A stretch of DNA of 64,000 bases from Trichoplax sp. H2. Taxonomy: Eukaryota. Below, in pieces: positions 2,484 to 62,172 of this stretch. How positions within the stretch are numbered: the stretch's first letter is position 1; each line of letters starts with the position of its first letter. The notes under the pieces were generated by a model. That model searched no databases. It saw only the letters and a program-made list of their open reading frames with translations, and was not told where the DNA came from. The DNA is taken from NCBI GenBank assembly GCA_003344405.1, contig NOWV01000133.1, positions 62,001 through 126,000 on the forward strand, written 5' to 3'. The position numbers and the translations under genes are program-made.

Positions 2484-4135
2484 TGATGAAGCATGGTCAA
2501 GTAGTCCTTGTTCAATGTACGATTTTGTGCCTCCTGCTTATGAAATAACTTGGATATTACGTATACATATGCACTGCATGCCTTTCAGAGCTTGGTTAAT
2601 ACAGTGTCATAATAAATGTGTGGAAAATGATTGTCTAATTTTGTATGATTAGTATGTGAAATATCAAATAACTTCCCAGCACCCTGTACACGCTATCTGT
2701 CACCCCCCTATTCTATCTCGTCAAGCCGTAGCAACTAATAATATCTCTTCTTGGGTCGGGTCTCTCGTCAAGACGTGACAGACTATTTTGCACACAAAGT
2801 CAGACCATGCTGCATCAATACTATACTGTACTGTACAGTTACTGGAGGATGAAAATTTGAAAGTCATTGACAATATTGCGTCATACCCGTCGATCTGTAT
2901 CAGCAATTGTCAGACGTACGGTACGGACAGCATGGTGGTGCAGTCCCGTCGTGGATGAAGCCGAGACCGATCAAATAGCTGATGCTGCACATTTGGGGAG
3001 TTTATTGATGAAGCATGGTCAAGTAGTTCAATGTACGATTTTGTGCCTCCTGCTTATGAATTAACTTGGATATTACGTATGCTTATGCACGATTTTGTGC
3101 CTCCTGCTTATGAAACAACTTGGATATTACGTATGCATATGCACGATTTTGTGCCTCCTGCTTATGAAATAACTTGGATATTACGTATACATATGCATTG
3201 CATGCCTTTCAGAGCTTTGTTAATACAGTGTCATAATAAATGTAAGGAAAATGGACGTCTAATTTTGTATAATTAGTACGTGAAATATCAAATAACTTTC
3301 CAGCACCCTGCACACGGTATCTGTCACCCCACCTATTCTATCTCGTCAAGCCGTAGCAGCTAATAGTATCTCTTCTTGGGTCGGGTCTCTCGTCAAGACG
3401 TGACAGACTATTTTGCACACAAAGTCAGACCATGCTGCATCAATACNNNNNNNNNNNNNNNNNNNNTTGAAAGTCATTGACAATATTGCGTCATACCCGT
3501 CGATCTGTATCAGCAATTGTCAGACGTACGGTACGGACAGCATGGTGGTGCAGTCCCGTCGTGGATGAAGCCGAGACCGATCAAATAGCTGATGCTGCAC
3601 ATTTGGGGAGTTTATTGATGAAGCATGGTCAGGTAGTCCTTGTTCAATGTACGGTTTTGTGCCTCCTGCTTATGAAATAACTTGGATATTACGTATACAT
3701 ATGCATTACATGCCTTTCAGAGCTTTGTTAATACAGTGTCATAATAAATGTATGGAAAATGGACGTCTAATTTTGTATAATTAGTATGTGAAATATCAAA
3801 TAACTTTCCAGCACCCTGCACACGGTATCTGTCACCCCACCTATTCTATCTCGTCAAGCCGTAGCAGCTAATAGTATCTCTTCTTGGGTCGGGTCTCTCG
3901 TCAAGACGTGACAGACTATTTTGCACACAAAGTCAGACCATGCTGCATCAATACAGTACTGTACTGTACAGTGTACAGTACTGTAGGATGAAAATTTGAA
4001 AGTCATTGACAATATTGCGTCATACCCGTAGATCTGTATCAGCAATTGTCAGACGTACAGTACGGACAGCATGGTGGTGCAGTACCGTCGTGGATGCAGG
4101 GGAGCCAGATCAAATAGCTGATGCTGCACATTTTG
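2484..4135. repeat. Tandem repeat, ~520-bp unit x ~3, with nested 54-bp triplication
   Basis: GATGAAGCATGGTCA recurs at ~2484, ~3007, ~3617 with near-identical downstream sequence; 54-nt unit (GATTTTGTGCCTCCTGCTTATGAA...) x3 at ~3031-3200. Confidence 0.92.
3447..3466. other. Assembly gap (20 N)
   Basis: Run of N inside the tandem repeat, so repeat copy number is uncertain. Confidence 0.99.
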
Positions 4136-4844: not shown

Positions 4845-13691
<8,847 letters not shown>

Positions 13692-14102
13692 CTTATGATT
13701 ACGTATTATGTATTATCGTATATTATTACTGTATCTTATTACTTGCTTGTTGATTAGAAGGGATAACGATATCTTGAAGCCAAATTACAGAAATTTCTGT
13801 ACAAAATCGATTGTTAGTTACAAAATTACCCATTTATTGAAGCCTTATAACTACAAAATGATCAGTAATATACTTTATCGACTGAATTATTGATATTCAT
13901 TGGCACGTGTTTTTAATTATTTCGGTTATTGGAAGTTGTCGTGCATATTGTTAGTCCTAGTTTATACAGAAGGTCCAGATAATAATGACGTATCGTATTT
14001 TTAATTCAACCCAACTACCGCAACATTGGTATTATGTATCAAGAGCGACAATTGTATGAAGATTAAAGAACCTTTATTAATTGCTTCAAATTAATATGTG
14101 TG

Positions 14103-14741: not shown

Positions 14742-15017
14742 GTGTGTAACTTCCTATCTGCAGTTACCTTGATATTTAAAAGTTATGTTGTTCTTTAACT
14801 TCTATACAACTAGAAGCAATATGGTGAAGTTTGTAGCCTTTAAAAGAAAAGCTTATGATAAATGGCTATAAAACATGTATTTATCGGTTCGAAATACACA
14901 TCAATTGTCTACACAAAAAATTAACTAATTTTAAATATATAAACTTCGCTTTAAGTAAATTCAGTACATTACGCTCTATACAGATCGTAAATACAATAGA
15001 CATAGCTTAACAGTTTA

Positions 15018-23766
<8,749 letters not shown>

Positions 23767-28372: not shown

Positions 28373-37077
<8,705 letters not shown>

Positions 37078-40000
37078 TATCTTATTGTTAATAATATTAT
37101 GTTGGCGATTTCAATTATGGCGTAACTGTAATACCAGTCACGTCACAGCTTCATAGTGATGAATATGGTACAATGTACTCGTATTCAAATTAAAGCGATA
37201 GCTTATGGAGCCTATTATGGTCTATGAAATATTCATAATTTTTACCATTTTGTTTCTGCATCTATCATATGTAGACACATTACGTAGTCTTAGTGGCTTA
37301 TAGTAATATTCTCAAGTACTGATTGATGATTTTACAAGATTACAACATCATATTATAATTATTAAATGCAATACTATCGGAGATATTTAACTCATTATAA
37401 TTGCTCAAGTCAGTATACGTATCAGAGGCAAGTGTACAGTACTGCCTCGTAATCATTGTATTCTAATGAAGAACAATTTTTAAAAATCTGTTTAATTTTA
37501 TCAATACTATATACTGTTCTGTTTTTACGTATTGAGTTATACTCTGCGAGTAAAATTTGTAACTGGCTTTATTATTACAAATGCCGGGTATTTATAGATA
37601 TTCTAGCTCACACCTTTTTGCCTGTTTGCGTCGTGGTATTAAACACTGATACCTAATTACTAACTGTTAGAGCTATCGTTTACTTTACAGCATATGGTTA
37701 TCTATAGTAAATGATCAGTCTGCCTTTTACAATATAATCACGAACGGTCTTACAAGGTGTAGTAGTTTCAGCTAATTACAGTAGTAATTGAAGTACGGTA
37801 GCATTACGAAGTAGAATAGTCTACTATGCTGATCCTGTGTAGCGTTAGAGATTTGCTTAATTTTAATAACTCAGATTTTGAGTTGGACGATTGTGAACCT
37901 AAGAGGTTTCAAAACCCAAGCACTACACAAGGCTACAATACAGTCATCGTATTACAAATACTTATATAGATGATATTCTAATCATTTAGTTAACGCTCTA
38001 TCTAATAGCTAATGTAACATATATCGTTTATCTATAACAAACCTTAGCAAATAATATTAAAAGTTTAATCCATATCTTTTTCATATGTATTGTGCTATAA
38101 TTACGTTACTCCAAAATTTTTACAGTACAAATGCGATAAAAATAATATAACGTAAAGTTTTTAGAATACCATATAGTGAAAGAATTGAAAGAATGCAAAT
38201 ATTAGAATTCTTTAAAACTTTTAGTGAATGTAGATTGCAGTAAACGATATTTATCGCATAGAAATTAAATTAGTACTTGAGCTACTGTAGGAACACTATC
38301 ATCGCTGATCAGAAATGACGACGTACTGCTATAACTAATATAGGCGTTACATTTATTCAACAGTAGTTTAACGGCATTGTCTACATCGCTTTTAAGTGCT
38401 TAATTTACTCGCAAAAGTTTAAAATAGCCTAAAGAATCTATGAGGATAACGTAAAGGCATACAAACACAACAGTAATTGAGAATAGGCAACTTAATAATT
38501 CGGCACGTGGGAAGGTTATCTGTCTTGATGCCTTCGAAAGATCTTTGAAGATTAGTCTTCAAAATAATCAAGCAATTATAGATAGAAATTTAGAAAATAG
38601 GGCGATACAGAGTATATTCAATCTTTAGTAGTTTTACATCTTGCAGATTTTCAACTGATAGAAACTACAAAGCTGTGTACAGGAATTTAATTTAATAACG
38701 TTAATTAACAATTCTTGAAATTACCAGTAATATAAGTCAATATTAAATTCTATATCATTTTCACTGAATTATGAAGCTTGATTATCTATGTAATTGTGAA
38801 CGATATAAAACATTTTTTAGTGGATTCCAAATATTGAAATGCTACCATTCAAGTAATTGCTGTCAATTAATAAAAGTAATGCAATCATTAATCAAAAAGC
38901 TTCGTGATAGTATCAAGAAGGAACAGATAGATATCTAAGGACTCACAGCTTAGGTACGAGAAATGTTATTCCAATGTATATAGATAAGAAATAAGGGGAA
39001 AAGTGCAACTTGATTTTTTATCATATTCGACGAAATGAATATATATTCTAAACATGGAAGCAATATACGTGTAGGTATACTAAAGAAATCTTTAGCTTTT
39101 GGGGTAGGACTATGGTAATTACCGTAGCTATTAGTATTATATCATTCTTGCAATTATCACTACAGTTGTACCGTCATTAAAAACAGCTAAATAATATTGA
39201 GAGCAATATACTATCTTGATATAACAACAAGAATGATTGTCACAGAAAACTCTTTAAGATATTTTTGTAATAATTAAATAAGGAACATAAGGTTCATAAA
39301 GGAAGTATAAATCAATTATAAATCAACAATGAGTAACAAAAAATTTTAGCTGGTACAATTTGTATAGCAGTCATGGAGATACAATACTGACGATAGAATA
39401 AGATGTTTAGGAATGATTGCTTATGCCATGTTTAATAAATTTTTGATAGAGCAAAATATCAAATTGCGATTGGAATCATTATATATCATGTCAACGAAGG
39501 GATTAGATTCCACGATCAATCCGAACACAATATGCAACGCTGCAACTATCGATCTGTAGCTGAGATTGCAATATAATACTTTGTAGTTTATTGATATTTT
39601 ATCCAATTTCTTGAACGTAACATCAGGAGTAGAAATGATACTGGAACTTGAAATCAATTCAGTATTACTACTCTTTCATTCTGACGATATCAAATTTGAT
39701 ATCAATTCTATAAGCTAGAAATGCAATGAAACTACTGTATATTATAGATGATGCCATGTAAGCATTAAAATATTTTTCTTTACCATTTTAAAACACGCTA
39801 CGATAAATAAATGGTAAAAATATGGACTGCTAAATTGATGAAATAGATGAAATAGCAAATAAACTACAAAAATGATCGAGAACGAATACAAGATACTAGT
39901 TAGCATAGTACAGTTGATAAAGATAGTAGCAGAAGAGTGAATGTATTATTTCTCATGGGTTAATAACAGTCATTAAAGTTCACTATTAATTTATGCTTGG

Positions 40001-40220: not shown

Positions 40221-41242
40221 TTATTGGAATAAAGATGGCGATAGTTTTTCTTTGGATGCAGGGGGTTCACCCGAACAACATAAGTATTTCCCGTTATTCT
40301 CGAAATCAGTTAAGTTCTTCATGACTTTTTTCAACTCTGGAGCCTTGTAAATTTTTTTGACAGGTCCAGTCGTCAATCGAACAGCATTGGTAGAAGCCTG
40401 TAACATTTGATCAAATGTACGAAATTTCTCTTTTTTCATAACAAGCTTTTCACCAGTGTGATGTTTATCACCATTTCGATATAAAATTACGCTAATAGGC
40501 TTGTCCATTTGAGTGCCAAATTTCTCTTTTCCAAGTGCACTGGCCACAACTGGTTTATCTGATTTGGAAACGTTACTTTTATTCACAGCAAAATCGCGCG
40601 ATTGGCTGCTTGTACTGCCGGTATAATCCACCATATTTTCCCTTCCAGCCTTTCCAAGGCCCTTCCCGGAATCATCGAAGCGATTTTTATGGCTTCCCTA
40701 TTGTATCAACGACAATAATAGTGGTTAGTACCAATTTAATACAAGGACTCATTTCAAGCTAAAGTTAGAACATTATAGCAATGTATAACATCAAATTATT
40801 TACAACTATTTGGGCCTGATCATTGGTTTGCTAGCAAAATCGGTAGTAGTGGGGCGGATCACAAAATTATTGCATCTACGTACGCTAATCTCAGTTTATT
40901 AATGTAAGTACGGTAATCTGAAAGATGCGATACTATAATTTTTAAATCTGTCCGTTGAATTTTTAGAGATAAAAAGAGGTAAAATCGTATTGATAAGTGC
41001 TCCATCGCTCAAGACGGCTAGTATCGTTGATTCCTCCATCCTGTTTACTGTAGAAAACATGCCAGGCCTTAAAAGAAAGCTTGCGGTAGGAAAAGTAATA
41101 ACACAGTAAAATAAAATGATGTTCATCTTGAGCTAATTGCAGGAAAAACCCCTTCATAGGATAAAATTTTTAATGCTCTTACAGTATATTTAGACGAGTC
41201 CGTTAAGCGACTAGTCACATCTTGAGATTTCTTACTCGCCAT
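40221..41242 (-). CDS. Apicortin (partial p25alpha/TPPP domain plus doublecortin domain), 178 aa, 2 exons
   Basis: Exons 41242-41183 and 40697-40221 (GT-AG, phase 0) give [39 protein letters not shown] (TPPP motif GxGxGxxGR), then DCX-like LYRNGDKHHTG...TFDQML...GPVKKIY...FENNGKYLCCSGE. Confidence 0.93.
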
Positions 41243-41487: not shown

Positions 41488-42399
41488 GTTGCAAGAGGAA
41501 GTTCTATCTGCTACATGAATGGTTATGTCTAAATGTTTTCCCTTTATGTTGGTCTTGGTAACATTATTTGTTAGCTAACAGTGTAATTGATCAATTAATG
41601 ATGATGACTGATACAATTTTATGGTCTTGTGTATTATTATAATTGAATCATTCAAAAATAACTTGAAATGATAATGGAGATTTAAAGTGAAGCATTGCAT
41701 TACAATGATTATTTTCTACAATTGTAAATCTACTCTATAGTTGATGATACAAGTAGCACCTTAATAGTCTCTTTCCTGTTTACAATAGTAATACATCTTG
41801 AAGAAGTACCGCTCCAATAGCAAACAAGCTTTAACTATTGTTGTTGTTGTTATAACATCCAATGACGAGCGATGTCAAAGGTTGCCATTATTTCCATCTG
41901 GTTTTATGCATATGTATTGAACTATTATTATTCTAGTAGATCGTAATGACATGTTGTTCCATCATCTACTTAAACAACAATACATATGATGTAAAGTTAT
42001 GTTGAGCTCAGCTTTGAAGTAGAACTTTGTTCAGCTGGATAATATCAATTTTAATTACATTATTAAAATAATTTATTCACGGGCTAGCCGTTAAGTATCA
42101 TATCTATCTGTCTTATAATGCAACTCTTTTCAAAAATTCACTGCATTTAGTATATCACAATTTATTAAAATATCCCATATAGCGATTTTCTTGCCATATA
42201 CTAACGGGCATGTTCTGAGTATCCCTTAAATTAAGATCATAATGTGTAGTTAAGCTGTTAAATAAGTTATTGTTGTCAATGTGTTATGTAGAAGCGAATT
42301 AGAGATAACTTAAAAATTATACCAAAATCTAGTACTGTTGACAATAACAGGTTTATATAAGTAATGGTTGTAATAATTCAAGTATGTTAATTTCAGCTT

Positions 42400-42775
42400 C
42401 GCTTACTTCTCCTAAAAATATTCCTGATAAAATATTGATTATAAATAACAGAGTTTGCATTATGTGTATGTTCTCATCAGAGATTATGAAATTGATGAAA
42501 ATTAATGAAATTATCATCCAACATGAATAATGAATAATATATTTAGGTTTGAAAAACATATTTTTTTCCGAACCTACAATTAGGATCGGAAATTCTGTAT
42601 TATTCAAGTCCTTAATATACTTATTTTTGATTTCTAAGTATTCCTCGTAGGTTTTGACTATTGCCGCAATTTCTGGTTCTAATCCTTGAATAAATTGACG
42701 TATCCGTTTCAGTAAGCCGGTTAACTGTGAAGTCGTCAGCTTGAACTTAGCCATAGCATCTTAGATCCTTTTACC
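42400..42775 (-). pseudogene. Truncated pseudogene of the minus-strand dynamin-like GTPase
   Basis: GKRI*DAMAKFK...QGLEPEIAAIV...EFPILIVG aligns with gene A exon 2 (KRRIQAAITKFE...QELQPEIVDIV...KYPILVAG); TAA at 42763-42761; the next exon starts GEVS (~42411) and then homology stops inside the P-loop. Confidence 0.8.
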
Positions 42776-46201: not shown

Positions 46202-49200
46202 TTATATTCCGCAGTCGTAACTATTGAGAACATCATTAATGTTTTTCCTGAGTTTATTAATAATGCTAATTTTATCTAAGGCGATATCCCTTGCCATAGA
46301 ATAATCTTTTTGATTAACTTGATTAATGAGAGTTTCATTTGCCTCTACTTGCCGAATCATCTGCCTTCGCATATTCTCGATAGATTCTTTAACTGGATTG
46401 GTATAATTTAGTGCAACTTGTCTCGCTTTATTTTTTTGGGCCAATTCCGAAAGAATTTTAGGTGAAATTTTTTCTAATACATGCAGAATCCTTTTTGTTT
46501 GTCTATTGATTTTACTTGCAGACCAGATTGCAGTAACCACAGCAGCCGCAACAATGATAGTAATAATAATTCCTATACCAGCTGTTGCTCCACCAATTAC
46601 TCCTCCGACAACAGCAGCACCAACTCCATCTGCAATAGTAAGGCCGACAGTAGCACCTACAGCACTACCACTAAGTGTTCCAGTAACAACTCCCAGACCG
46701 GCAAGTAGACTTCGACGTAATCCTTTTCCTTTAGACGGAATACCATCCGCGTATGAGCTGTTTTCTATAAGTGACGAAACGTTTTCTAGGTCCTGTATAT
46801 TATTTAAAATGGAAACATCCACTGCTAACTTATTTTCCAAATCATCTAATTCCTTTAAAGCCTGTTCATAGCGCGAATCTAGAGATTTTCGTACTTTTAC
46901 ATAAAATTGTTTGAGTAAATTGTTATGATCTTCCCAAACAGTTAATAAGCGAATAAATCGATCGTCAATTAGTTTACTAATAACATCTTCGATATTAGTA
47001 ACTTTTTCACGAATTGGTATGTCATCTAATGTCCAATGCGTCATCGAAAATTTAAATTTATTACTATTAAAAAAATGAAGCAAAGAAGTTGTAATTTGTT
47101 CAGTGTTATCATCGATAATTTTTTCAATGCCTATATGAAAATCTTGATTTTCTACGACAGTCTTTGCAGATGAGGTGTTATTTATTAGACTGTCCAAGTA
47201 AGAGATACGGTTTTTCTGATCCAAGCGAGAGCAATTCGCTAACAAGCGGTATCTATGGGCTACAACCTTCAATAAAGTGTCCAACCAACTATACATAATA
47301 TAAACAAGACAGTTACAATTAATATTTAAACTAATGTATCTATTTTGCATATACATTGGCATGCAGTACCTTATAAAATACGCTACTGCATTAATATGAA
47401 CTATTAATTCGGTAAAATAGCTAAAAATATCTATTACTACTTTAAGAAATATCCTAATTGCGATACATACCAGCTATAATTTACTATTGTCTTCTTCAAG
47501 CTATCTTCCAGTAGCTGAGAAAGAAGGGAATATACTGCTTTCAAATCGTCCGATATATATCCAGCTTTGAGATGATTTGCTGTGATTTGACTCGATAATA
47601 ATATGAGCTGAGAATCGTGAAAACCTGGCCAAAGTCGTTTTAAATTTTTCTTAATACTTTCTTCAACCTTGGGTCGATTTGTATCGGAGATAAGATCCCA
47701 TTTATTACAGATAAAAATGGCTGATTCTGGGGAGAATCTCTTAAAATTTCCATTTCCTGTATTTTGAGCCACTCTTAAGAGTCTTACAAGCTGTAAAGTA
47801 GTGAACTATTATTAGCTATTATCTTAGATGGAAAATTTAAATAATCACTTGGTATCAGCTGTAATTTATTAAAGCTTACTCGGTCTTCTAGTATACCCCC
47901 AGCATTTGAGGGATTGATGACGTAAACAAGCGAGCAGGCTTTAGGCAAATAATTTACGAGCTGCTGTGTTGCTAAAGATGTTTCACCTATCCCTGGGCTA
48001 TCTACTAAGAAGATTCCATCCTAATCGAGAGCATGAAGAATTCTATGGTGATGATTTTTGCATATGCTAGCTGAAATTGTCTTTGCATTTTGAACAAATT
48101 TTACTAACGGCAATAGCACATTACTAAATCGTTTCAATAAAACAATCTTCTCAAGTAGACACCAGAAAATTATGATAGACAGCCAAGGCCTTGTCTATTT
48201 TAATATAGTCAAATACATTCTACAATGCCAACTATTTCTCTATTTTAATCTATATTAATCAAAAATGTCTTAACCAGCTCGTTGGACAAACCTTCAGAAA
48301 GTCAAAACTCCAATGAACTTCAATCTTTCCACTTGTCAGTTCTACATCAGGAAGATCACAATTTACGGTAATATCATTTACTGAGGTAGAGAGCACAGGC
48401 GTTTCTTCGGTATCTGTATAGTCTTCATCTTGCTGAAGTGAACTGTGACCTTCTTCGGCTGCATTGGTGGAGATCTTTTTCTTGGATATCAGGTCTTGGG
48501 CACTTTTAATCTTTTTAACCAGGTCAGAAACTTTATCGATATGTATTGGCTGCAACGGTTCTAACTTTTTATCCCGTTTATTCCAAATAAACGGTTTCAA
48601 GCAAGAGTCTATGGAATAATGTAATTGACATATACACTTTGTGGTATGCAAATGGCCGACTGGCAGTACCGATTTTCCTAAGATTAAGTTAATTAAACTA
48701 CTTTTTCCAGCGCTTACTTCTCCTAAGATCATATACAAACAGATAAAAATATTGACTGTATTATTATCATGCGTAGCTTGCCGTATATTTCTAATTAGAA
48801 TTATTTAAGATACGAGGATAAAATTAGATCGTTCATTACAAATAACGTTGAAAGGATAAAAGTTTATTTTTTATCCTGAACCTGCAACAAGAATTGGATA
48901 TTTCATATTGTAAAAATTCGCAATCTGGTTATTAATATTCTCTAAATAGTGTTCGTCAATGACATTGACTATATCGACAATTTCCGGTTGTAATTCTTGA
49001 AATATAAGCTCCTTTGCTTGTAACGATAAGTTGATTACTTGTAATTTGCTTTCCTCAAATTTAGTGATAGCAGCTTGGATCCTTCGTTTGCACTGGTTAT
49101 TTCAAGATTTGTTAGGTATTGATCAGGGTACGAAAATACAATATTTTTATTTGATTTAGTAAAGTACCGGTAGCAGTAAGCAATAAATTGATACCAGAGT

Positions 49201-49602
49201 TAAGACATGTAGTTTTTATTACAAGTACTTGATAATTTAGAACAGAAAGCAGGTTATATCTTAAATTTGCGTTGGTCTAATGTTATCGTGGATTAATCAA
49301 CTTAAATAGAATACGATATAGTCTGCCGAATCGTAGGCTGTTTTAGTCACGACAATAATTTTATCCAATTATGTTGCAAAGATATAGAGATGTAATAATC
49401 TAATTTAGAAAGTAATAGCACTTACGTAGGAACTTTTATAGTTTTCAATTGTTGCATCTCTTCGAAATAAGTCTAATCGGTCTTTAAAATCCTGCAAAGT
49501 TTTTGTTCCGGTTGAATCGATGTTATATTTTTTACAGATATTTCTTGCAACTCTAGCGCTTTTTATTTCATCAATTTCACTCTTTGTTATGGCAGAAGCC
49601 AT
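46202..49602 (-). CDS. Gene A: dynamin-like (BDLP/mitofusin-type) GTPase with Gly-rich hydrophobic hairpin, ~788 aa, 6 exons
   Basis: Exons 49602-49426, 49092-48882, 48722-48292, 48020-47880, 47790-47471, 47288-46202 splice in frame; G1 GEVSAGKS, G2 LPVGHLHTT, G3 LVDSPGIGE, G4 CNKWD; helical C-terminal region with a ~60-aa G/A/V/I-rich segment. Confidence 0.88.
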
Positions 49603-50620
49603 TTTTAAACGATAGCTCTCACGATTATCAGTGCCGTAATCGAAAAGCTTTATGTAATGGCAAACTTGAATTCTGTAATTCCTATTCTTTGGATCTGAAA
49701 TGTGAAGGAGAATGAAATTCACTTTTAATTTTCTACCCCGTGAAACAGTTTTAGTAACACTTTTAGTATCATATGCTACTAAGAAATATCCATTAGTAAT
49801 CTACTCTTTGATCTTTGATTATGGATGGATTAACAATTACTAACTATGCTTATTATGATGTAATCTTTCAATTAAGACTATATAATTCCTGTTGAAGACC
49901 TGAAAAGAACTTGTACAGCTTTATCTACAGTACGTCACTTTATCGTACCTTGCTATATCAATATTATAGGGGAGTAATGAAGTATCGACAGTTCTATTCA
50001 TACATTGCATATTCTTAAGTCCATTCTACTGTATGTATATACGAGTACTGTAGATACCTTTTTGCTACATAAGGGGGGGGGGGGCTCTTCAACCTACAGT
50101 ATAGCGATCAGCGGCACCAGCAAAAATTAGTTCTCTACTACAAACGTAATATCAATTATTATAAGATTTATAAAATTTTTTCATGATAAGATCGGAATCT
50201 AAGGATTTGGTAGCATGTTTACTTTTTCTATTTTTTCCTGTATTGTAAAAGAATTTACTTTCTTATTCAGACACACATTAATTCGCATGAAAGCTAAGTA
50301 ATAATTCTAAAATCACAATTCATATCTGAAAGATTAATTGAATTACGTTAGAGCTTTACACTAATAAACCATACCGATACAACGAGATTCTCACAGTAGC
50401 TGAATGCTGATGATGCTCTATGATCAACCTGATGATCAAGCCTATTTTGACGTTTCAAGGGTTGTAAACTGACTTGGTTACGTAAAAAATTGCTTCATTA
50501 AGAATTGATATAGTCTATTTTATTGGCTTTGTTTGTTAATAAAAGCATACATTATGAAATATATTACAATAGAGCATTCTAAAAATTAACTATCGTACTT
50601 TTGTGTCAAATATAAGGTGT

Positions 50621-51371: not shown

Positions 51372-54300
51372 ATGGCCAACATCGATAGCGAAAAAGGTAT
51401 ACTCATAATTACTCAATTATTTCTGGCAATCTTTCGTGAGATTAATTATAACAATTTGTAAGCTTAGGCAAGTAAATGACATTATAATACAATGTAATGA
51501 TTCAACGTCAATAACATCGAAATAACTTGCTGTATAGGAATACTGTACACGTACTCGTACGTATGTAGGGTCTTGAAATGCCGTGTTGTTTTGTAGAGTT
51601 ATTTCATAAAAAATGAAAGAATGCTAATTAATCTTATCATATCTTAGTCAAATCACTTTTAGATCAATTGGAAGCAGCCAAGTACGTCGACGAAATTTTC
51701 GATATCGCCGATGAATTCGACTGGGACATCGATGATAGTAAAATCGAACCATTGAGGAGACAAGCTATACAGAACACACTCAAACTGCTGCCTAATGAAA
51801 ATCAAAATACATATCAAGATGTAAGTGCCGCAATTGTTTCAACTGATATTTATCAGCAGTTTACTTTAACAATTATGGACGCAGTAGATTCATCAGTGCA
51901 CGCAGCGCAATCTTCAATTAACATGTAGAATTAACAAGTGTAGAATATCACATTTGTATAATACTATAAATAATCAATCACGATTATTATTATGCAATCT
52001 GTGGTAATAGCAAGTTTGTAACGTACTAAATTTGATAATATCGAATTAACGCAAACATACAACAGCAATCTAAATGTACTAATGCTATATATAGTAATAC
52101 ATCACATTAAATGTACAATCTAATAAATACAGCGTGGCGTAGTATATAGTAGTATCAACTGCATATTGAAGAAAAGTATAAAAGATCTATATTTAAGAAT
52201 GTATTAGTTATAGGATAATCTGAAAACACTCCAGTTTTCAACTGAAATTGGTCTATAATTTCTTTTAACAATTATTAACTTTTCGATCGAATAATAAAAA
52301 ATCCCAAATAATAATTACAAAGTAGTCAAAGTAGCGTATAAATGACTTATACTGCTAAAACGAATTTAACGAGATCGATTGGTTAGTATTAAAATAATTA
52401 TCTTTAGTACCTTATATAAGATTACTACCATGTATAGTATGGACGATGTCTGATAGCTCATTTATAATATTGTGACGGAGTACAGACTCCGTAAATTAAT
52501 TATAGCGTTAGTTTCAGTAATTAAGATTTTATTAGTTGTTAATAACCTTTATTTATTAGGTACTCGTTAATTTTAATTTTATTAGTAGTCTAGTCTTACT
52601 TTTTGTAGACTCTATGCAGAATAGTGTACTTTCATTAGCTAGTTAGCTGACGATTGACCGTGTAGTATACGCGTGTAGTTAGAGTAGTCTTGGATGTCAA
52701 GACCACCTTGGTTTAATAAACTAATTTAAAAGCCTAAGTCTAGTTTACTCTTAGCCCGTTGGGGGCACATTTGGCTATTGTAGCCTTAATATTTATACTG
52801 ATTCAAAGACCCAGATTTCCTTGTCGTGAGCTGAACACGACAAATATTGACACAAACTGAAGCATAACCAAGAGTTATATCCGCAACTTAATTGTTATAG
52901 GAAATTGAAAAATTAAGTCGTATCAGTGTTGATGACAATACGGCAAGAAGCAAAATAAAAATTCTTCATGAAAGTGTTGAACGCCTGGTAAAGATAAGTA
53001 ATGAATCGTCTCTAATACATCAACGGGAAGAATATGAAAAAAATCTTAAGCGAAGTGATAATCATTCCACGCTAGAAGATTTTAAATATCCAGTTCTAGT
53101 TACGGGTAATGTTAATGATAATTATATAGTTATTTTTACATACTGGTAGTTTATATCATTAAATACCTATCTAGATCGAAATTAGATGCGGGATATTGCT
53201 GTTGTCAAATTTTATTGATTATGATAGAGAAATTCCATTTTCTTAGTTCAACTGTGGCAATGATAATGATAATTGATGAATATAGTAATTAACTATAATT
53301 CAATTTTAGGTGAAACTAGTGCTGGAAAATCCTCTTTGCTGAATTATCTACTTGGTATAGAGTTATTGTCAACTCATACACTAAGTTGTACTAATAAAAT
53401 ATGTGAAATCAGATATGGTGAGATGCCAAAAATTGACATAATCAATGCTGACAGTGGTGATAAAATCAGTACTAATAGTTGGCCGCTAGATAGTAAAGAT
53501 TCTGCCATAAAAGAAATTCGGTCATTAACCACGGATGAAGGTCTTTTTGGGCACCTTAATAAGGCTAGTGGAATGAAAGAAGGTGAAGATCCATCCAATC
53601 AGCCATTGATATTGGATGAAGATGTTTCCCAATACTCTAGTGAGAATCATGAAGTAAGACCAGGTGAAGACCCATTGACCCAGACGTCGATGCTAGATTG
53701 TCTTTCCCGACACCCTAAGCAAGAAAATAACATAACAGCGCATAAAGACTCTCAAGATCAGTTATCAACACCAGAAAACTGCTTCCAAAACACTAACACA
53801 GATAACGAAAAGAAAGTAAGAAGAGACTCATCAAATCAGTCGGTAACATCGGAGGAAAACCTTTATCGATCCCTGCACGAGGACTTTGAAGCGGTGGCAA
53901 GAAAATTACCATTCAATCAGTCAGTAATCTCTGATGAAGACCTTTACCAACGATCTAATATGGGTAATGAGATGATGTTAAGTGAATCCTCATCTAGTTT
54001 GACGTTTATATCGGAAGATCCTTTGCAACATTCTGACGAGGATGACGAAATGATAGAAAGTAAAAGCAAGCCTAATATACTAATTAGAATACATTGGCCG
54101 TCTAAATTCCTTAAGGTAAGGACGCGATGGTGTCAAAAATCCTAATTACGTGTATCAAATCATATTTTGTAAACAACTGTTTTATTGAATACATAGAAGC
54201 TTATCTAAGAAAGCAATATCATTCATTTTATTTTTCTCAAATATTTACTTAATATGTTCAGTGTACAATTAAATTACTTGTACTTAATAGTAATATAACA

Positions 54301-57300
54301 TCATTGTGCAAACGATTTAATACTATATTTTCTTTACGGTACTGTTGTTTTACTAGCACCTCAAGTAATTCATTGTATCGCGCTCTAACAGTTTTAAAAT
54401 AGAGTTACTTACTTGAGTGATTATGTTTAAGGGTGGCATGCAAATTGTTGACAGCCCAGGGATTGGCGAGAAAGAGAATATACCAAAGGTCTTGAAAAAG
54501 TACATTTACAAGGCAGTTGCCTACGTTATTGTTATCGATTCTGGTAATGCTGGAGGGATACAGGAGGGAAGGGTAAAGTATATTTGAATAGAACTATATA
54601 GAGAAAGGTAATTTACATGATGTTTTATCCAATGTTTGATTACGACTTCATTTGATGCTACATGACCTAGCTTCAAAACTTACTACAAGAAATATCCGGT
54701 GTACTGGGAAAGGATGGCTATTCGAGTTTTGAGTCTTCAATGGCTGTATTTGTTTGTAACAAATGGGACACCGTACCGTTTTCGGAAAGAGAAGAAGTGA
54801 AAAATGATAGTTTAAGAAAACTGAAACGCTGCTGGCCTACTATGGTGGAATCTCAAGTAATATTCTTATCAACTAAAATATTGTTGGAGGCTAGAGCTTA
54901 CAATCCCGATGCTTTAATATTACCGGAAGCTCATCGATTATTTGATAAGCTTATTGAGTTGATTCCTATTAGTCGTAAACGGAAACTTTTCAGATTTTAC
55001 AGGTTAGTATGTCATAGTCAAATAAGTATTAGCTAAAGAAATAATTCATACGGTATCTTTGCGATATTTTACTTTTATCTTCAGGTGTATGATAAAGTTC
55101 GTTGAAGAAGTTCAGGAAACATGTTGGTGCTATCTTCTGAAAGCAAATTCAGAAGATTATCGAAAACAAATCTGTGAAGACCAAGCAAAGGAATATCAGC
55201 TACTACAAAAAACACATGACTTATTTAAAACACTAGAAGCAGATAAAAATAAATTAATTGATGATGCAATAACGAAATATCTAAACTTACTTAAGTGTCT
55301 GAATTTTAAATCTATTGCTAAATGGTCTGAAAAGGACCTCGCAGATAAAGAATTTGAAGAAGATAATCTAAGGATACTACAAGAACATGCCGCTAAAAAA
55401 ATTAGAAATCGATTAAATACCCATCTGCAATCTATTGGTGAAACGATACATAATGATCTTTGGAGCAAGAACGATTCACTAATAGAAGAATTCAATGTTA
55501 AACTAGATGAAATCTTTCATTTAGTAGTACCTAACTCAATTGAATCTACTAATTCCTTTAAGCACAGATACAGGAGCAGTTTTGACTTGGATGAAAGAGT
55601 AGGATACTCAAACTTTTCAGAATTACATGGATTTTATGATTTATGGGCTGACATCGATGCAAAGAAAAGAACTGTTGTAATCCTTACTAGTCCAGTATGG
55701 GTGGCTCCAGTAGTCATAGCTAGTTCAATTAATCAACTTGCGAAATCATTCAGACGTAAACATAAACAAGAAGAGATTCAGACATATAAAAAAAAATTGG
55801 CAGAAGAAATGAGAATGAAGACACTGGAATATCTTGAGGATATTAGCTCGGAAGAGTTTGCCAGAAAATTTATCTTTGAAAAAATCAATTCATTTACCAA
55901 TACCGTAATAGAAAATGTTAAAATATCTATATCCAGATCATTAAATTCTAGAATTAAGGCCGCCAAAATTGTTTTAGAGGATAAATGCACGCCTAGAGAA
56001 ATCAATAAAATATATCGACCGATTGAAAAAGTAGCAGAAAAACTGCATTCCCAGTTACGTGATTTCTATTCGAAGGAGCTAGCTGTATCATCAGTCAAAT
56101 TCAATAATCTACGTGGATATGATGAAAAATCTACTGCGATATCCTTAGGATTAAAGGTCAATTTATATCGGGCAAGTATCTATATAAGCGGTAAAGAAAT
56201 TAAGGTCATTATCCAAGTTCCGGTAAAGAAGTCTATGCGTGAAATGCATGACTTTACTAATAATTGCAACACCATTATGGCTAGGTAGGGCGCAGTTTTC
56301 ATCAATAGTAAAAAGAGATAGAGTGATAAAAAATTTTTTTTACACGCATATTAAAGCTAAAGAATCACTTTATTTCTTGCAATATTAAGAAAAGCAACTA
56401 CTATAATACATTCTTAATAATTAATTTATTTCATTTTTGATATATTTAATCTCTGTAATCAATTCTATGACTAGATCTCTAGAATCGACAAGTATCGCAA
56501 AATTTCTAGGTATTTGCCATTCTCCGAACGTAACAGCTATTGGAATTTTCGAAAATTCTCTTTTTACACTCGAAGACTTAATTCTATATGACCAAACCCT
56601 TATTGCCGAAGCTGATATGAATATTATTCGCCAAAATGATCCAGATGTAATACGATTAATGAAGATTTTTTCCATGGTTTATCAAATCATAGAAGGGATC
56701 AAATTCTTACATGAAAACGAACTGATTCATGCTCATTTGACGCTTGGGAATATTTTGGTAAATTGAACGGCTATTCAGCATAATTTCAAATTTAGATTAC
56801 AGTACTTCAGATATCGAAAATCTAGCTTGAAAAGCTGCTTTTAAGATAAGAAACGTCAATCTGGCAACTCAATAATTTATCGAATTAAAATTTTCTAAAG
56901 TTCGACCTAGTAATAATCCTTCATGATATTATTACTGATAAATTTCAGCAAGTCCTAAATATCAGCAATTTTTTATTTATTTTGATAATAGGTTTACTTC
57001 CAAGCAGATCGACTCAAATTAAAGCTATGTCATCTCATGAAAAATTGTGTAATTGATCCAAAGATTGATTTTGAAAAGTCCATACTCCATTATTTGGCAC
57101 CTGAAGTTTTGAAAGGTAAATACATTTATTATCGAATGCATTTGTTTGAGATCAATACCAATAGCTACAACCTTCCTTATTCTATCTCAGTTTGTGATTG
57201 TTGCATATATAGTTAGTAATAGATTAAATACGATATGTTAACCATAAAGGCATAAATAAAAGGAAACACTATATATGTACGTATATGATGATTGTATGAT

Positions 57301-57862
57301 AGTACTTGTAATACAGTAGGTGATAAATAACATTGTAAAAGGTGGACTGATAAGTTACTAATTGTAGTGCGAAGTATAAACTGTAATCGTATCGAGGTAT
57401 AACCTCGTGTTGCTATAAATACCGATCATCTATCTAATAATAAAATGTGGTTATCAATCTTACTCACGGAGTGAACTTATTATTGAAGAACATAACAGTG
57501 ATATAAACAGAACAATTATAGAGGTCTATTTTTGTATCACGTTATTAACTTGTTCTTCCACATTCAACGATATGTTAGATCGTAAATGTTTACAAGCTTC
57601 AGATATTTACAGCTTCGCAGTATTATTCTGGGAAATTTGGCATTGGAAATCGATACCAGAATTGTTTAGCTGGAATATCAATACTGATCCTGGTGAAAAA
57701 GTAAAGGATTTATTTGAAACAAACACACTTATTCCTAAGCTTCATAAAGATTTGTACAGTATTTGCTTTGATTCCTTTGCTGTTAATCCTAAAGAAAGAC
57801 CGGATATTTTTTCTTGGTATGATACGTTTCAAATGCTAGAGAGTACAGTTAACTGCAGATAA
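51372..57862 (+). CDS. Gene B: dynamin-like GTPase fused to a C-terminal pseudokinase (DSTYK-like architecture), ~1190 aa, 10 exons
   Basis: Exons 51372-51396, 51648-51820, 52901-53105, 53310-54115, 54432-54572, 54671-55002, 55085-56284, 56475-56757, 56992-57115, 57579-57862 splice in frame; GETSAGKS, VDSPGIGE, CNKWD; hydrophobic VVILTSPVWVAPVVI; kinase-fold motifs GIKFLHENELIHAHLTLGNIL, YLAPE, SDIYSFAVLFWEI, PKERP. Confidence 0.88.
52471..52842 (+). mobile_element. Solo LTR (372 bp, internally deleted) in intron 2 of gene B
   Basis: TGTGACGGAG...ACACGACA termini; AATAT TSD at 52466-52470 and 52843-52847; homologous to 14103-14741. Confidence 0.9.
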
Positions 57863-58229
57863 ATGATATTATAAAAATACTATCAGCTTTGCATTGTCAA
57901 TACAAGGAATACTTGAGTCTTACATAGACGATTGTGTATTGTAAGAAATGTATTTAGTCCCAATTGCGATTTAAATCTTTGACTGCAGCAACCACTACAG
58001 GTTCTAGAGCTTTGTAATGAAGATTAATTTTTAGAATTTTCCTTCAAGTTCTGATATTGTAATTATTCTAGCTTAGTTTTTGTATCGCGATAAGTATTCT
58101 TGCTTTAAAAATATAACTTATTTGGTAGTGTAATAAATGCATCCCATCGTAATTATCTTAGTCAAATGGTATTTTCTAAAAGGCTTTATTACAAAATTTT
58201 AGGAATAGTAGAGCAATAATTAATTACTG

Positions 58230-61741: not shown

Positions 61742-62172
61742 ATGGATATTTCAGGTATAATATCTTCAAATGGTCTTCATTATATTCATGAAACTTTTAA
61801 TAAGTTAATATATGATCAGCACTAGATTTTAGGCCAGAATACTCTTGAATAGTGTAATTAGTAATGGCACTAATGTAAATAATATCGTAGGTATGGTTTC
61901 ACATCCATAATATTGTGTTTGATGAAATTAAAAATGTTAGTTCACCAGTAATTTTGTTCTAAATAATGAAATAACTAACGTATTCGAATTTAACTTTAGT
62001 TGAGTCACTTTTAGAGGAGTTGGATGCCGCTAAAGAGTTATCTGTACTATTCGACATTGCCGATTCACTAGGATTGGATATTAATGCAACGGATATCTCA
62101 GAATTCAAGAATAAGCTTACTCAATGCGTACGTCAGTTGCAGCCTAACGAAAAACAAGTTACATATCATGAT
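61742..62172 (+). CDS. Gene D: 5' exons of a paralogue of gene B (presumably continues beyond the window)
   Basis: Exons 61742-61754 (MDIS, phase 1) and 62000-62172 (173 nt, same length and phases as gene B exon 2): VESLLEELDAAKELSVLFDIAD...LQPNEKQVTYHD vs VKSLLDQLEAAKYVDEIFDIAD...LLPNENQNTYQD. Confidence 0.82.

Follow-up and report, generated by a model that had tools for sequence, protein, structure and literature searches.

The window analysed here, 64,000 nucleotides of Trichoplax sp. H2 DNA (contig NOWV01000133.1, positions 62,001 to 126,000 of the forward strand), contains at 51.6–57.9 kb on its plus strand a single gene (gene B of the window) whose product very probably carries a retained pseudokinase at the end of a dynamin-like GTPase. 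To the fuller reading, that this retained pseudokinase would serve the GTPase as a docking or switch module, we assign a probability of roughly 0.55. The product is already annotated at NCBI as TRIADDRAFT_54945 of Trichoplax adhaerens (P0001, 1,190 amino acids) under the name 'uncharacterized protein': the open frame at 55026–56284, the largest exon, is 99% identical to it, and joining the exons by coordinates yields P0001 residues 9–1190 with Q259/H259 as the sole difference. Positions 56088–57862 (+) encode residues 896–1190. A sequence-only reading of the window had flagged 56100–57862, that is, residues 900–1190, as a kinase domain that had lost all catalytic motifs in a frame still open and spliceable.

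Whole-protein searches matched the C-terminal part of P0001 to the Pfam families PK_Tyr_Ser-Thr (71.2 bits against a cut-off of 23.1, E-value 1.1e-19, residues 928–1173) and Pkinase (48.2 bits, cut-off 31.7). The NCBIfam models gave only far-sub-threshold kinase matches (MAD6 at 30.5 bits against a cut-off of 460), and the matches of the protein in the ESM Atlas were generic kinase clusters only, with no structure of the protein itself there. We modelled P0001 with AlphaFold2 from a family alignment of 72 rows, active-looking kinases among them; over the whole chain the model has a mean predicted local distance difference test score (pLDDT) of 77 and a predicted template modelling score of 0.75, with residues 900–1190 mostly at 83–96. 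Compared by VIA with the best 1000 chains picked by Foldseek, all of which reached a Z of at least 8, model residues 896–1189 superposed on JAK2 JH1 (4aqc_A) with a Z of 25.3 and a root-mean-square deviation (rmsd) of 3.0 Å over 261 residues, and KIT, FGFR3, EGFR and RET tied with it inside one Z unit. A VIA scan of 48,161 representative chains, independent of Foldseek, returned EGFR, FES, CSK, FGFR1, CRAF, HCK, DLK, BRAF and TAK1 at Z 24.3–23.5. Solved pseudokinases matched as well (JAK2 JH2 at Z 22.4, PTK7 at 22.6, IRAK3 at 21.4 and TYK2 JH2–JH1 at 23.5). The kinase domains of RIPK1, RIPK2 and RIPK3, to which the sequence-only reading had pointed for alignment, share the fold (Z 21.2–21.7) but match less well than JAK, FGFR, RAF and DLK (Z 23.5–25.3), and we rejected RIPK as the closest fold on these values. 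MLKL was not among the best 50 matches listed of the scan, which does not exclude it.

Residues were assigned from 74 kinase regions of the family aligned with MAFFT, which came from 73 of the 89 proteins among P0001–P0151 that match residues 890–1190, plus the paralog P0189; seven multi-kinase proteins, the near-duplicate P0003 and proteins outside 780–1,200 amino acids were left out. In 38 regions the catalytic apparatus looks active (a full K / HRDLKxxN / D[VLFM]G set), and 36 are degenerate, three of them from Trichoplax and the other 33 not. The strings quoted in the sequence-only reading (AISLGLKVNLY, VIIQ, HAH, KLCHLM, APE, SDIYSF and ERP) all lie on the plus strand as placed. Canonical phosphotransfer is predicted to be out of reach because the Gly-rich loop, the β3 Lys, the αC Glu, the HRD Asp and the DFG Asp are all replaced (see the table). 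The claim that every catalytic motif is gone was nevertheless overstated: the loss of these five features stands, but the HRD His (His1046), the catalytic-loop Asn (Asn1053) and APE remain. A phmmer comparison with PDB sequences laid IHAHLTLGN on VHRDLAARN of PDGFRA. Pairwise phmmer set the DFG motif one residue earlier, on L-C-H; either register is without an Asp, and neither the catalytic loop nor residues 1063–1076 of P0001 contain one. Nor is a relocated Asp visible, and the sole basic candidate is Lys918, which sits at the Gly-loop tip. A kinase fold in which the β3 Lys, the HRD Asp or the DFG Asp is missing commonly counts as a pseudokinase; the domain is one as far as sequence can tell, with the Pfam and fold matches in place and all three residues absent. 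The residues that hold the fold, H1046, P1092, D1105, E1115 and R1170, are invariant or nearly so throughout the family (72-row alignment).

The kinase-like tail is expressed and correctly spliced. We compared the public sequencing runs X1, X4, X8 and X16 over 51400–58200, the contigs of which give no expression level. X4 and X8, which come from two studies, each contain a contig of ~3.8 kb from which all eight covered introns have been removed at GT..AG borders, including those at 56284/56475, 56757/56992 and 57115/57579 between the kinase-like exons; transcription and splicing thus follow the gene model exactly, and the possibility that these exons are untranscribed is not borne out. The last four exons (ending at 56284, then 56475–56757, 56992–57115 and 57579–57862) join in frame through three GT..AG introns with zero internal stops, so the frame proved as open and spliceable as the sequence-only reading had described it. 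Upstream, the GT..AG joints 51820/52901 and 53104/53309 were likewise seen in X4 and X8. The spliced contigs start at exon 51646–51820, where their 5' loose end reads ...ATGGCCAACATCGATAGCGAAAA; the first coding exon (MANIDSEK...) itself is farther upstream, beyond 51400, its ATG being in the loose end before 51646. Downstream of the stop codon at 57860–57862, the 3' untranslated region reaches at least about 58180 in both runs. A lower-depth contig of X4 and X8 (56730–57020) retains the intron 56758–56991. X1 gave one unspliced, DNA-like piece (53305–57234); X16 is recorded as RNA with a different organism label and spans some exon portions and a single joint.

Of the eight coding differences from the window found among the runs, six are synonymous and two change a residue (R657K in the stalk, and Q259H in the disordered insert described below). 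The kinase exons have a single one, 56673 C>T at Ser1027, and it is synonymous. Across the gene this polymorphism is compatible with purifying selection, with no power for the kinase-like domain alone. Exon versus intron divergence in X16 was dropped as evidence of constraint, as the intronic contigs lie in repeats and may represent other copies. Three intronic or 3'-flanking intervals (52308–52761, 57075–57528 and 57983–58200) are probably dispersed repeats, because the summed depth of X1 rises there to 700–1400 from about 108 elsewhere; the X16 contigs in these intervals carry many substitutions and indels.

Ahead of the pseudokinase, residues 58–899 form what is, as modelled, a dynamin-like GTPase of the mitofusin/Fzo1/BDLP/IniA type with neck and trunk bundles. 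We assign the body to this class because of its Pfam Dynamin_N match (62.5 bits, cut-off 27), its G1–G4 motifs and its Foldseek and VIA matches. The GTPase motifs described in the sequence-only reading are indeed intact: G1 (GETSAGKS, 135–142), G2 (T162), G3 (DSPG, 410–413) and G4 (NKWD, 480–483) are all present and fall on columns of the 72-row alignment that are invariant or at least 90% conserved, N480 being invariant and W482, D483, D410, P412 and G413 at least 90% conserved. With the whole model, the top Foldseek matches were BDLP of Nostoc punctiforme (2j69_A, E-value 8e-14, 874 columns; also 2j68) and mycobacterial IniA (6j72). VIA placed residues 58–899 on BDLP 2j68_A (Z 20.8, 548 residues), 82–889 on IniA 6j72_A (Z 21.9), 78–894 on SynDLP (Z 21.0) and 70–896 on MFN2 6jfk_A (Z 23.3) and Fzo1 9kfd_A (Z 23.4), with large rmsd values (7–20 Å) of the kind expected for hinged bundles.

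The last neck helix of the AlphaFold2 model (residues 864–893, 55992–56081) leads straight into the kinase-like domain, and the truncated MFN2 and Fzo1 structures, which consist of the G domain and the first bundle, align up to residue 896, which therefore places this helix in the bundle adjacent to the G domain. A hydrophobic, Pro-containing 18-mer, VVILTSPVWVAPVVIASS (residues 758–775, 55674–55727), is conserved in the paralogs, has a pLDDT below 50 and occupies the place of the BDLP paddle, making it a putative membrane paddle or hairpin. The G domain is also split by an acidic, Ser-rich insert of 160 amino acids (residues 226–385, 53582–54061) that is transcribed, disordered in the model (pLDDT below 50) and absent from P0189 and P0002. 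This insert contains three copies of a motif like NQ-S/P-V/L-x-S/L-D/E-E-D/N-L/V-Y/S, and it holds the sole amino-acid difference from the database protein (Q259H).

Trichoplax has two more paralogs, TRIADDRAFT_54954 (P0189) and 54951 (P0003, whose Trichoplax sp. H2 counterpart is P0002). P0189 reads SLGLKV, VIIQVPV, LIHAHLT, KLKLCH and YLAPEVL just as P0001 does, and P0002 has AIIQ and KLCH, its gene model being without the HRD stretch. K918, H1048, C1068 and H1069 are identical in those Trichoplax paralogs that cover them. The catalytic loss can safely be placed before the duplications that gave rise to the Trichoplax paralogs. P0001 and P0189 are 63% identical in the GTPase, 55% in the kinase-like domain, 47–48% in the stalk and 35% at the N terminus; the kinase-like domain is thus better conserved between paralogs than the stalk, which speaks against neutral evolution of these exons.

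With P0001 as query, phmmer found 1771 representatives in the full library at E ≤ 0.001, of which 68 reached E ≤ 1e-30. Many of the relatives are about 1,000 amino acids long and align from the G3 region via the stalk into the kinase C-lobe (query residues 388–1120). The 30 of them examined by name come from Branchiostoma (several paralogs), Saccoglossus, Ptychodera, gastropods, bivalves and a cuttlefish, and further from the nemertean Tubulanus, Lingula, the octocoral Dendronephthya and the sponge Oscarella; the P0137 cluster among them consists of JGI/IMG records, and beyond these 30 the corals Oculina and Stylophora have the same Pfam pair. Example members are Branchiostoma XP_066272439.1, Saccoglossus XP_002732513.1 and Haliotis XP_071083349.1. 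The relatives are called 'uncharacterized' or 'hypothetical', or carry automatic names (MAP3K9, MAP3K12, Fer, FGFR4-like, 'DSTYK-like', 'RIPK5'). None of the 30 is from a vertebrate, arthropod or nematode, which is not evidence of absence. Judged from these alignments the family is widespread in animals, and its kinase ends may be active-looking or degenerate; amphioxus has ends of either kind. Bilaterian degenerate members mostly read H-x-E/D-L-S-x-D-T and ...LPR. At β3 the 33 degenerate rows from outside Trichoplax have R (18), K (13) or Q (2), and 25 of the 33 keep the αC Glu; the Trichoplax proteins have lost both the basic β3 residue and the αC Glu that most bilaterian degenerate members keep, and their copies appear to be the most degraded seen here among the members compared.

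The pattern of conservation bears on whether the domain is being kept. Retention of the HRD His, the loop Asn, APE, the αF Asp and the αH–I Arg argues that the pseudokinase is maintained by selection rather than decaying as a relic. Mean pairwise identity in the kinase part is 25.9% among the 33 degenerate rows versus 34.1% among 35 active-looking rows, whereas degenerate and active-looking members score alike in the GTPase (37.2 versus 35.9%) and the stalk (18.3 versus 19.0%). The degenerate kinase part is less conserved than the active-looking one and more conserved than the stalk, from which relaxed catalytic constraint with a retained fold would follow, a pattern as expected for a fold kept for a non-catalytic job.

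To place the Trichoplax proteins apart from their kinase ends, we built a tree from the region aligned to P0001 residues 1–895 (72 rows, 708 columns; IQ-TREE quick mode, LG+C20 PMSF). The three Trichoplax proteins fell in a 34-row set, together with 30 degenerate members and one active-looking long-branch coral, with an SH-like approximate likelihood-ratio (SH-aLRT) support of 99. A tree holding the 33 degenerate members and Trichoplax together, a group named post hoc after the first tree, was not rejected by the approximately unbiased test (p-AU 0.72) and had a log-likelihood 10.9 above that of the free tree (LG+G4). The loss may be shared with the bilaterian degenerate clade, on evidence that is mixed. 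We regarded it as unsafe to take the bivalve protein P0076 (HGH...CH) as the nearest relative: its branch has a length of 2.62, it lies elsewhere in the non-kinase tree, and its join with Trichoplax in a kinase-only tree was flagged as a meeting of long branches.

The sequence-only reading had proposed an allosteric switch, or a decoy or sensor for effectors that target kinases; both stay conjectural here. As we picture it, the kinase-like domain would be carried by the closing helix of the neck bundle, alongside the G domain, and in mitofusins and BDLP the bundle next to the G domain moves with nucleotide state. Because the domain appears to sit on this nucleotide-moved bundle, we propose that it offers a surface for docking or dimerisation, with no part in catalysis, and that the placement or exposure of this surface would be coupled to membrane assembly and the GTPase cycle. 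Such a role would have taken the place of phosphorylation, the probable output of the active-looking relatives; those relatives in turn suggest an ancestral coupling of GTP-dependent membrane assembly to phosphorylation. By analogy with JAK JH2, MLKL, RNase L and KSR, a regulated docking or dimerisation surface is the most economical reading for the dead branch, and taken by itself the docking or switch mechanism comes near to even odds, perhaps just short of them.

Several observations weigh against a retained pseudokinase serving as such a module. The coupling to the GTPase is drawn from topology alone, and the His and Cys residues kept at the dead active site, with Lys918 in the Gly loop, leave room for non-canonical chemistry. 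The polymorphism sample is tiny, with a single site in the kinase exons. Under LG+G4 the 34-row set was not supported at 95, a kinase-only tree put Trichoplax beside the long-branch bivalve P0076 and nearer the active-looking rows, and the Trichoplax kinase part is 19.3% identical to degenerate and 20.1% to active-looking relatives.

Other explanations draw on the same evidence. The dead end might pair, within a hetero-oligomer, with the live end of a paralogous dynamin-like protein and so partner an active kinase, much as in KSR/RAF, HER3/EGFR or STRAD/LKB1. BDLP-type proteins often act as pairs encoded side by side, the Trichoplax genes are clustered (A, B, C, 54951 and 54954), and the near-even split of the 74 kinase ends (38 active-looking, 36 degenerate), with both kinds in amphioxus, would suit such pairing; all three retrieved Trichoplax kinase-bearing paralogs are degenerate, however, with no active-looking one among the matches listed, and we consider this arrangement unlikely. 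The dynamin superfamily has also been used repeatedly in immunity, and the kinase shape might bait pathogen effectors whose engagement triggers a membrane-active GTPase, as likened to plant ZED1/PBL2–ZAR1, to integrated decoys and to interferon-type dynamin GTPases. A tandem cluster in Trichoplax, several distinct paralogs in amphioxus and molluscs, and a kinase part that diverges faster in the degenerate clade are what such a decoy or sensor might leave behind, but the pseudo-active-site residues are conserved between paralogs rather than diversifying, Pfam found no death, TIR or NACHT domain in P0001, and we would not expect this explanation to hold.

Could the site still be an enzyme of another kind? 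Nucleotide might be bound and transferred by relocated residues, as in WNK, CASK or SelO, the candidates being Lys918 and the cluster His1046/His1048/Cys1068/His1069. The identity of K918, H1048, C1068 and H1069 in the covering Trichoplax paralogs and the retention of N1053 and the HRD His would fit this, yet five canonical positions, both Asp and the Lys–Glu pair among them, have gone together, K918 stands on the aromatic position of the Gly loop and not on what we take to be the WNK lysine position, and the catalytic loop and residues 1063–1076 offer no Asp, so that we rate non-canonical catalysis as rather improbable. A more speculative possibility, to which we give a slim chance, is that the dead site was rebuilt as a sensor in which the His/His/Cys/His cluster would bind Zn2+ or another ligand, with a metal, redox or small-molecule signal gating membrane remodelling because the bound ligand would fix how the kinase-shaped domain is placed on the neck of the mitofusin/BDLP-like GTPase; the family would then be one of overlooked GTPase–kinase membrane machines, possibly ancestral or allied to DSTYK. 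H1046, H1048, C1068 and H1069 are the same in the covering paralogs, and the pattern recurs as HGH...CH in one bivalve. That bivalve protein, P0076 of Sinanodonta woodiana, has the whole H-G-H...C-H pattern of Trichoplax, and this could reflect convergence on a His/Cys pocket or else an artefact of long branches; in Branchiostoma, P0012 and P0014 have His at the DFG Asp position. That the kinase exons are a functionless relic drifting neutrally, as the absence of the catalytic residues and a kinase part conserved less well among degenerate relatives than among active-looking ones might suggest, is disfavoured to the point of being barely credible: the frame is open over four exons and exactly spliced in RNA, identity between paralogs in the kinase-like domain (55%) exceeds that in the stalk, the fold-stabilising residues are invariant, the full kinase fold is modelled with confidence, and degenerate ends persist in at least six phyla.

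Features of gene B in the window, with residue numbers of P0001.
Feature	Position	Strand	Content and basis
Exon, residues 9–66	51646–51820	+	small N-terminal helical domain of three short helices, pLDDT about 90+ (AlphaFold2); tblastn 100% to P0001 9–66
Exon, residues 67–134	52901–53104	+	long N-terminal helices (64–99 and 105–117 in AlphaFold2), HB1-like neck bundle
Exon, G domain first half	53309–54110	+	G1 at 53309–53332, G2 Thr162 at 53390–53392; Pfam Dynamin_N 9.1e-12 on the exon
Exon with G3 DSPG (54450–54461)	54427–54571	+	spliced contigs; motif coordinates
Exon with G4 NKWD (54758–54769), G domain end	54670–54999	+	spliced contigs; motif coordinates
Stalk (neck/trunk) helices	55082–56087	+	AlphaFold2 helices 535–893; low confidence 710–770
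Kinase-like N-lobe start, shares the stalk exon	56088–56284	+	Gly loop, Gln938, Asn954 (56262–56264)
Gly-rich loop, AISLGLKVNLY	56136–56168	+	S914-L-G916-L-K918-V919; of GxGxxG the middle Gly alone kept
β3 (VAIK) Lys to Gln938, VIIQ	56205–56216	+	K in all 38 active-looking relatives; Q in all three Trichoplax paralogs
αC Glu to Asn954	56262–56264	+	E in 38/38 active-looking relatives; N, N and D in the Trichoplax proteins
Kinase-like exon 2: β4–β5, hinge, αD–αE, catalytic loop	56475–56757	+	Pfam PK_Tyr_Ser-Thr 5.8e-05, exon alone
HRD to H1046-A-H1048, HAHLTLGN	56728–56751	+	HRD His kept; Asp to His1048; D in 38/38 active-looking
Catalytic-loop Lys to Thr1050	within 56728–56751	+	family alignment
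Catalytic-loop Asn1053 kept	within 56728–56751	+	PDGFRA and family alignments
Kinase-like exon 3: β7–β8, Cys1068-His1069-Leu-Met, short activation segment, APE	56992–57115	+	alignment; X4/X8 joints
x-Asp-Phe-Gly to C1068-H1069-L-M, (KL)CHLM	57028–57039	+	DFG Asp column D in 38/38 active-looking
APE kept	57097–57105	+	sequence
Kinase-like exon 4: αF (SDIYSF) to αI (ERP)	57579–57862	+	Pfam PK_Tyr_Ser-Thr 2.7e-05, exon alone
SDIYSF (αF, Asp1105)	57599–57616	+	D1105 invariant in the 72-row alignment
ERP (αH–I, Arg1170)	57794–57802	+	R1170 at least 90% conserved in the 72-row alignment

Gene B has relatives close by: genes A, B and C of the window and loci 54951 and 54954 lie on the same 9.66-Mb contig and form a paralog cluster. 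Gene A (46202–49800, minus strand) is a kinase-less GTPase paralog (Dynamin_N 1.2e-13) with G1 GEVSAGKS, G3 DSPG and G4 NKWD, and has after these motifs a Gly/Ala-rich hydrophobic stretch that resembles a transmembrane hairpin. When the three kinase-bearing paralogs were used as tblastn queries, no kinase-like exon for gene A came up within the window. Gene C (61999–62172, plus strand) encodes an N-terminal helical domain 43% identical to P0001 residues 9–66, its remainder, with any kinase end it may have, lying beyond the window. On the minus strand, an open frame at 42353–42760 is like the coiled-coil stretch before the gene A G1 (...FPILIVGSEKN versus ...YPILVAGSG) and is possibly a fragment of a further paralog; a DCX-domain exon (40221–40697) adjoins it. 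Elsewhere in the window, three genes with ABC_membrane and ABC_tran domains stand in tandem with alternating orientation (about 6500–13700, plus; 15000–22600, minus; 29200–37100, plus) and, read from their translations, look like ABCC/MRP-type paralogs. An N run of about 20 bases, an assembly gap, lies in a repetitive stretch at 3446–3466.

Pseudokinases are a known kind and the gene was already in the databases; it is the pairing with a GTPase of the mitofusin/BDLP class that is undescribed in the literature searched. That literature, subscription papers aside, held no description of TRIADDRAFT_54945 or of an animal dynamin-like GTPase–kinase or –pseudokinase fusion. The passages searched of a study of dynamin evolution (PMC11789081) do not mention kinase, BDLP or Trichoplax, and another such analysis states that it left out mitofusins and BDLPs (PMC10280142). 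Should the GTPase cycle of membrane remodelling in this family be coupled to phosphorylation, or in its dead branch to regulated docking, the family would be an animal-wide player in organelle and membrane dynamics. It would also offer a natural comparison of active with dead members, and so of what is left for a kinase fold to do after catalysis is lost; as the most degraded members compared, the Trichoplax copies would make a clean case for a non-catalytic role.

Set against known systems, the body of the protein is the most familiar part. BDLP (2J68/2J69), IniA (6J72), SynDLP (9EM9) and MFN2/Fzo1 (6JFK, 9KFD) share the fold of residues 58–899 at VIA Z scores of 20.8–23.4 over 336–548 aligned residues, with a sequence identity of only 12–18%. 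None of these proteins has a C-terminal kinase fold, whereas the Trichoplax protein does, and the 160-residue acidic insert in its G domain is likewise unlike them. The hydrophobic segment, modelled with low confidence, would be placed like the paddle or membrane anchor of the BDLP class. The C-terminal domain resembles JAK JH2, MLKL, RNase L, IRAK3 and KSR in being a complete kinase fold without the catalytic residues, joined to an effector. Its loss is more complete than that of many pseudokinases, taking in the Lys, the Glu and both Asp, with His at both Asp positions, and its partner domain differs from that of the gating pseudokinases in being a dynamin-like GTPase. The likeness to MLKL in particular is one of analogy only, because MLKL has an N-terminal four-helix killer bundle where the N-terminal ~900 residues of the Trichoplax protein are a GTPase of the mitofusin/BDLP type and its stalk.

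ROCO proteins and LRRK also join a GTPase and a kinase-fold domain on one chain, which suggests how nucleotide state and kinase domain might cross-talk, a comparison of working rather than of parts. There the GTPase is a Ras-like Roc followed by COR, here it is of the dynamin/mitofusin class and the kinase end is dead, and Pfam found no Roc or COR domain in P0001. DSTYK (RIPK5, dual serine/threonine and tyrosine kinase), at about 900–1,000 amino acids, is of similar length and has a C-terminal kinase domain, a likeness by description. The possible link goes back to the automatic names 'DSTYK-like' or 'RIPK5' of three relatives (P0039, P0199 and P0137); these have active-looking motifs, which the Trichoplax protein lacks, and no vertebrate DSTYK was among the best 120 of 966 matches to the kinase region of the coral 'DSTYK-like' protein. 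Closest from end to end is the uncharacterised animal family itself, with the same architecture of Dynamin_N, stalk and kinase in the 72 members aligned. Its degenerate subgroup has lost the catalytic-loop Lys and the DFG Asp, as Trichoplax has; where 31 of 33 bilaterian degenerate members keep R or K at β3, the Trichoplax protein has Q, followed by N at the αC position and H-A-H...C-H, with the loop Asn kept.

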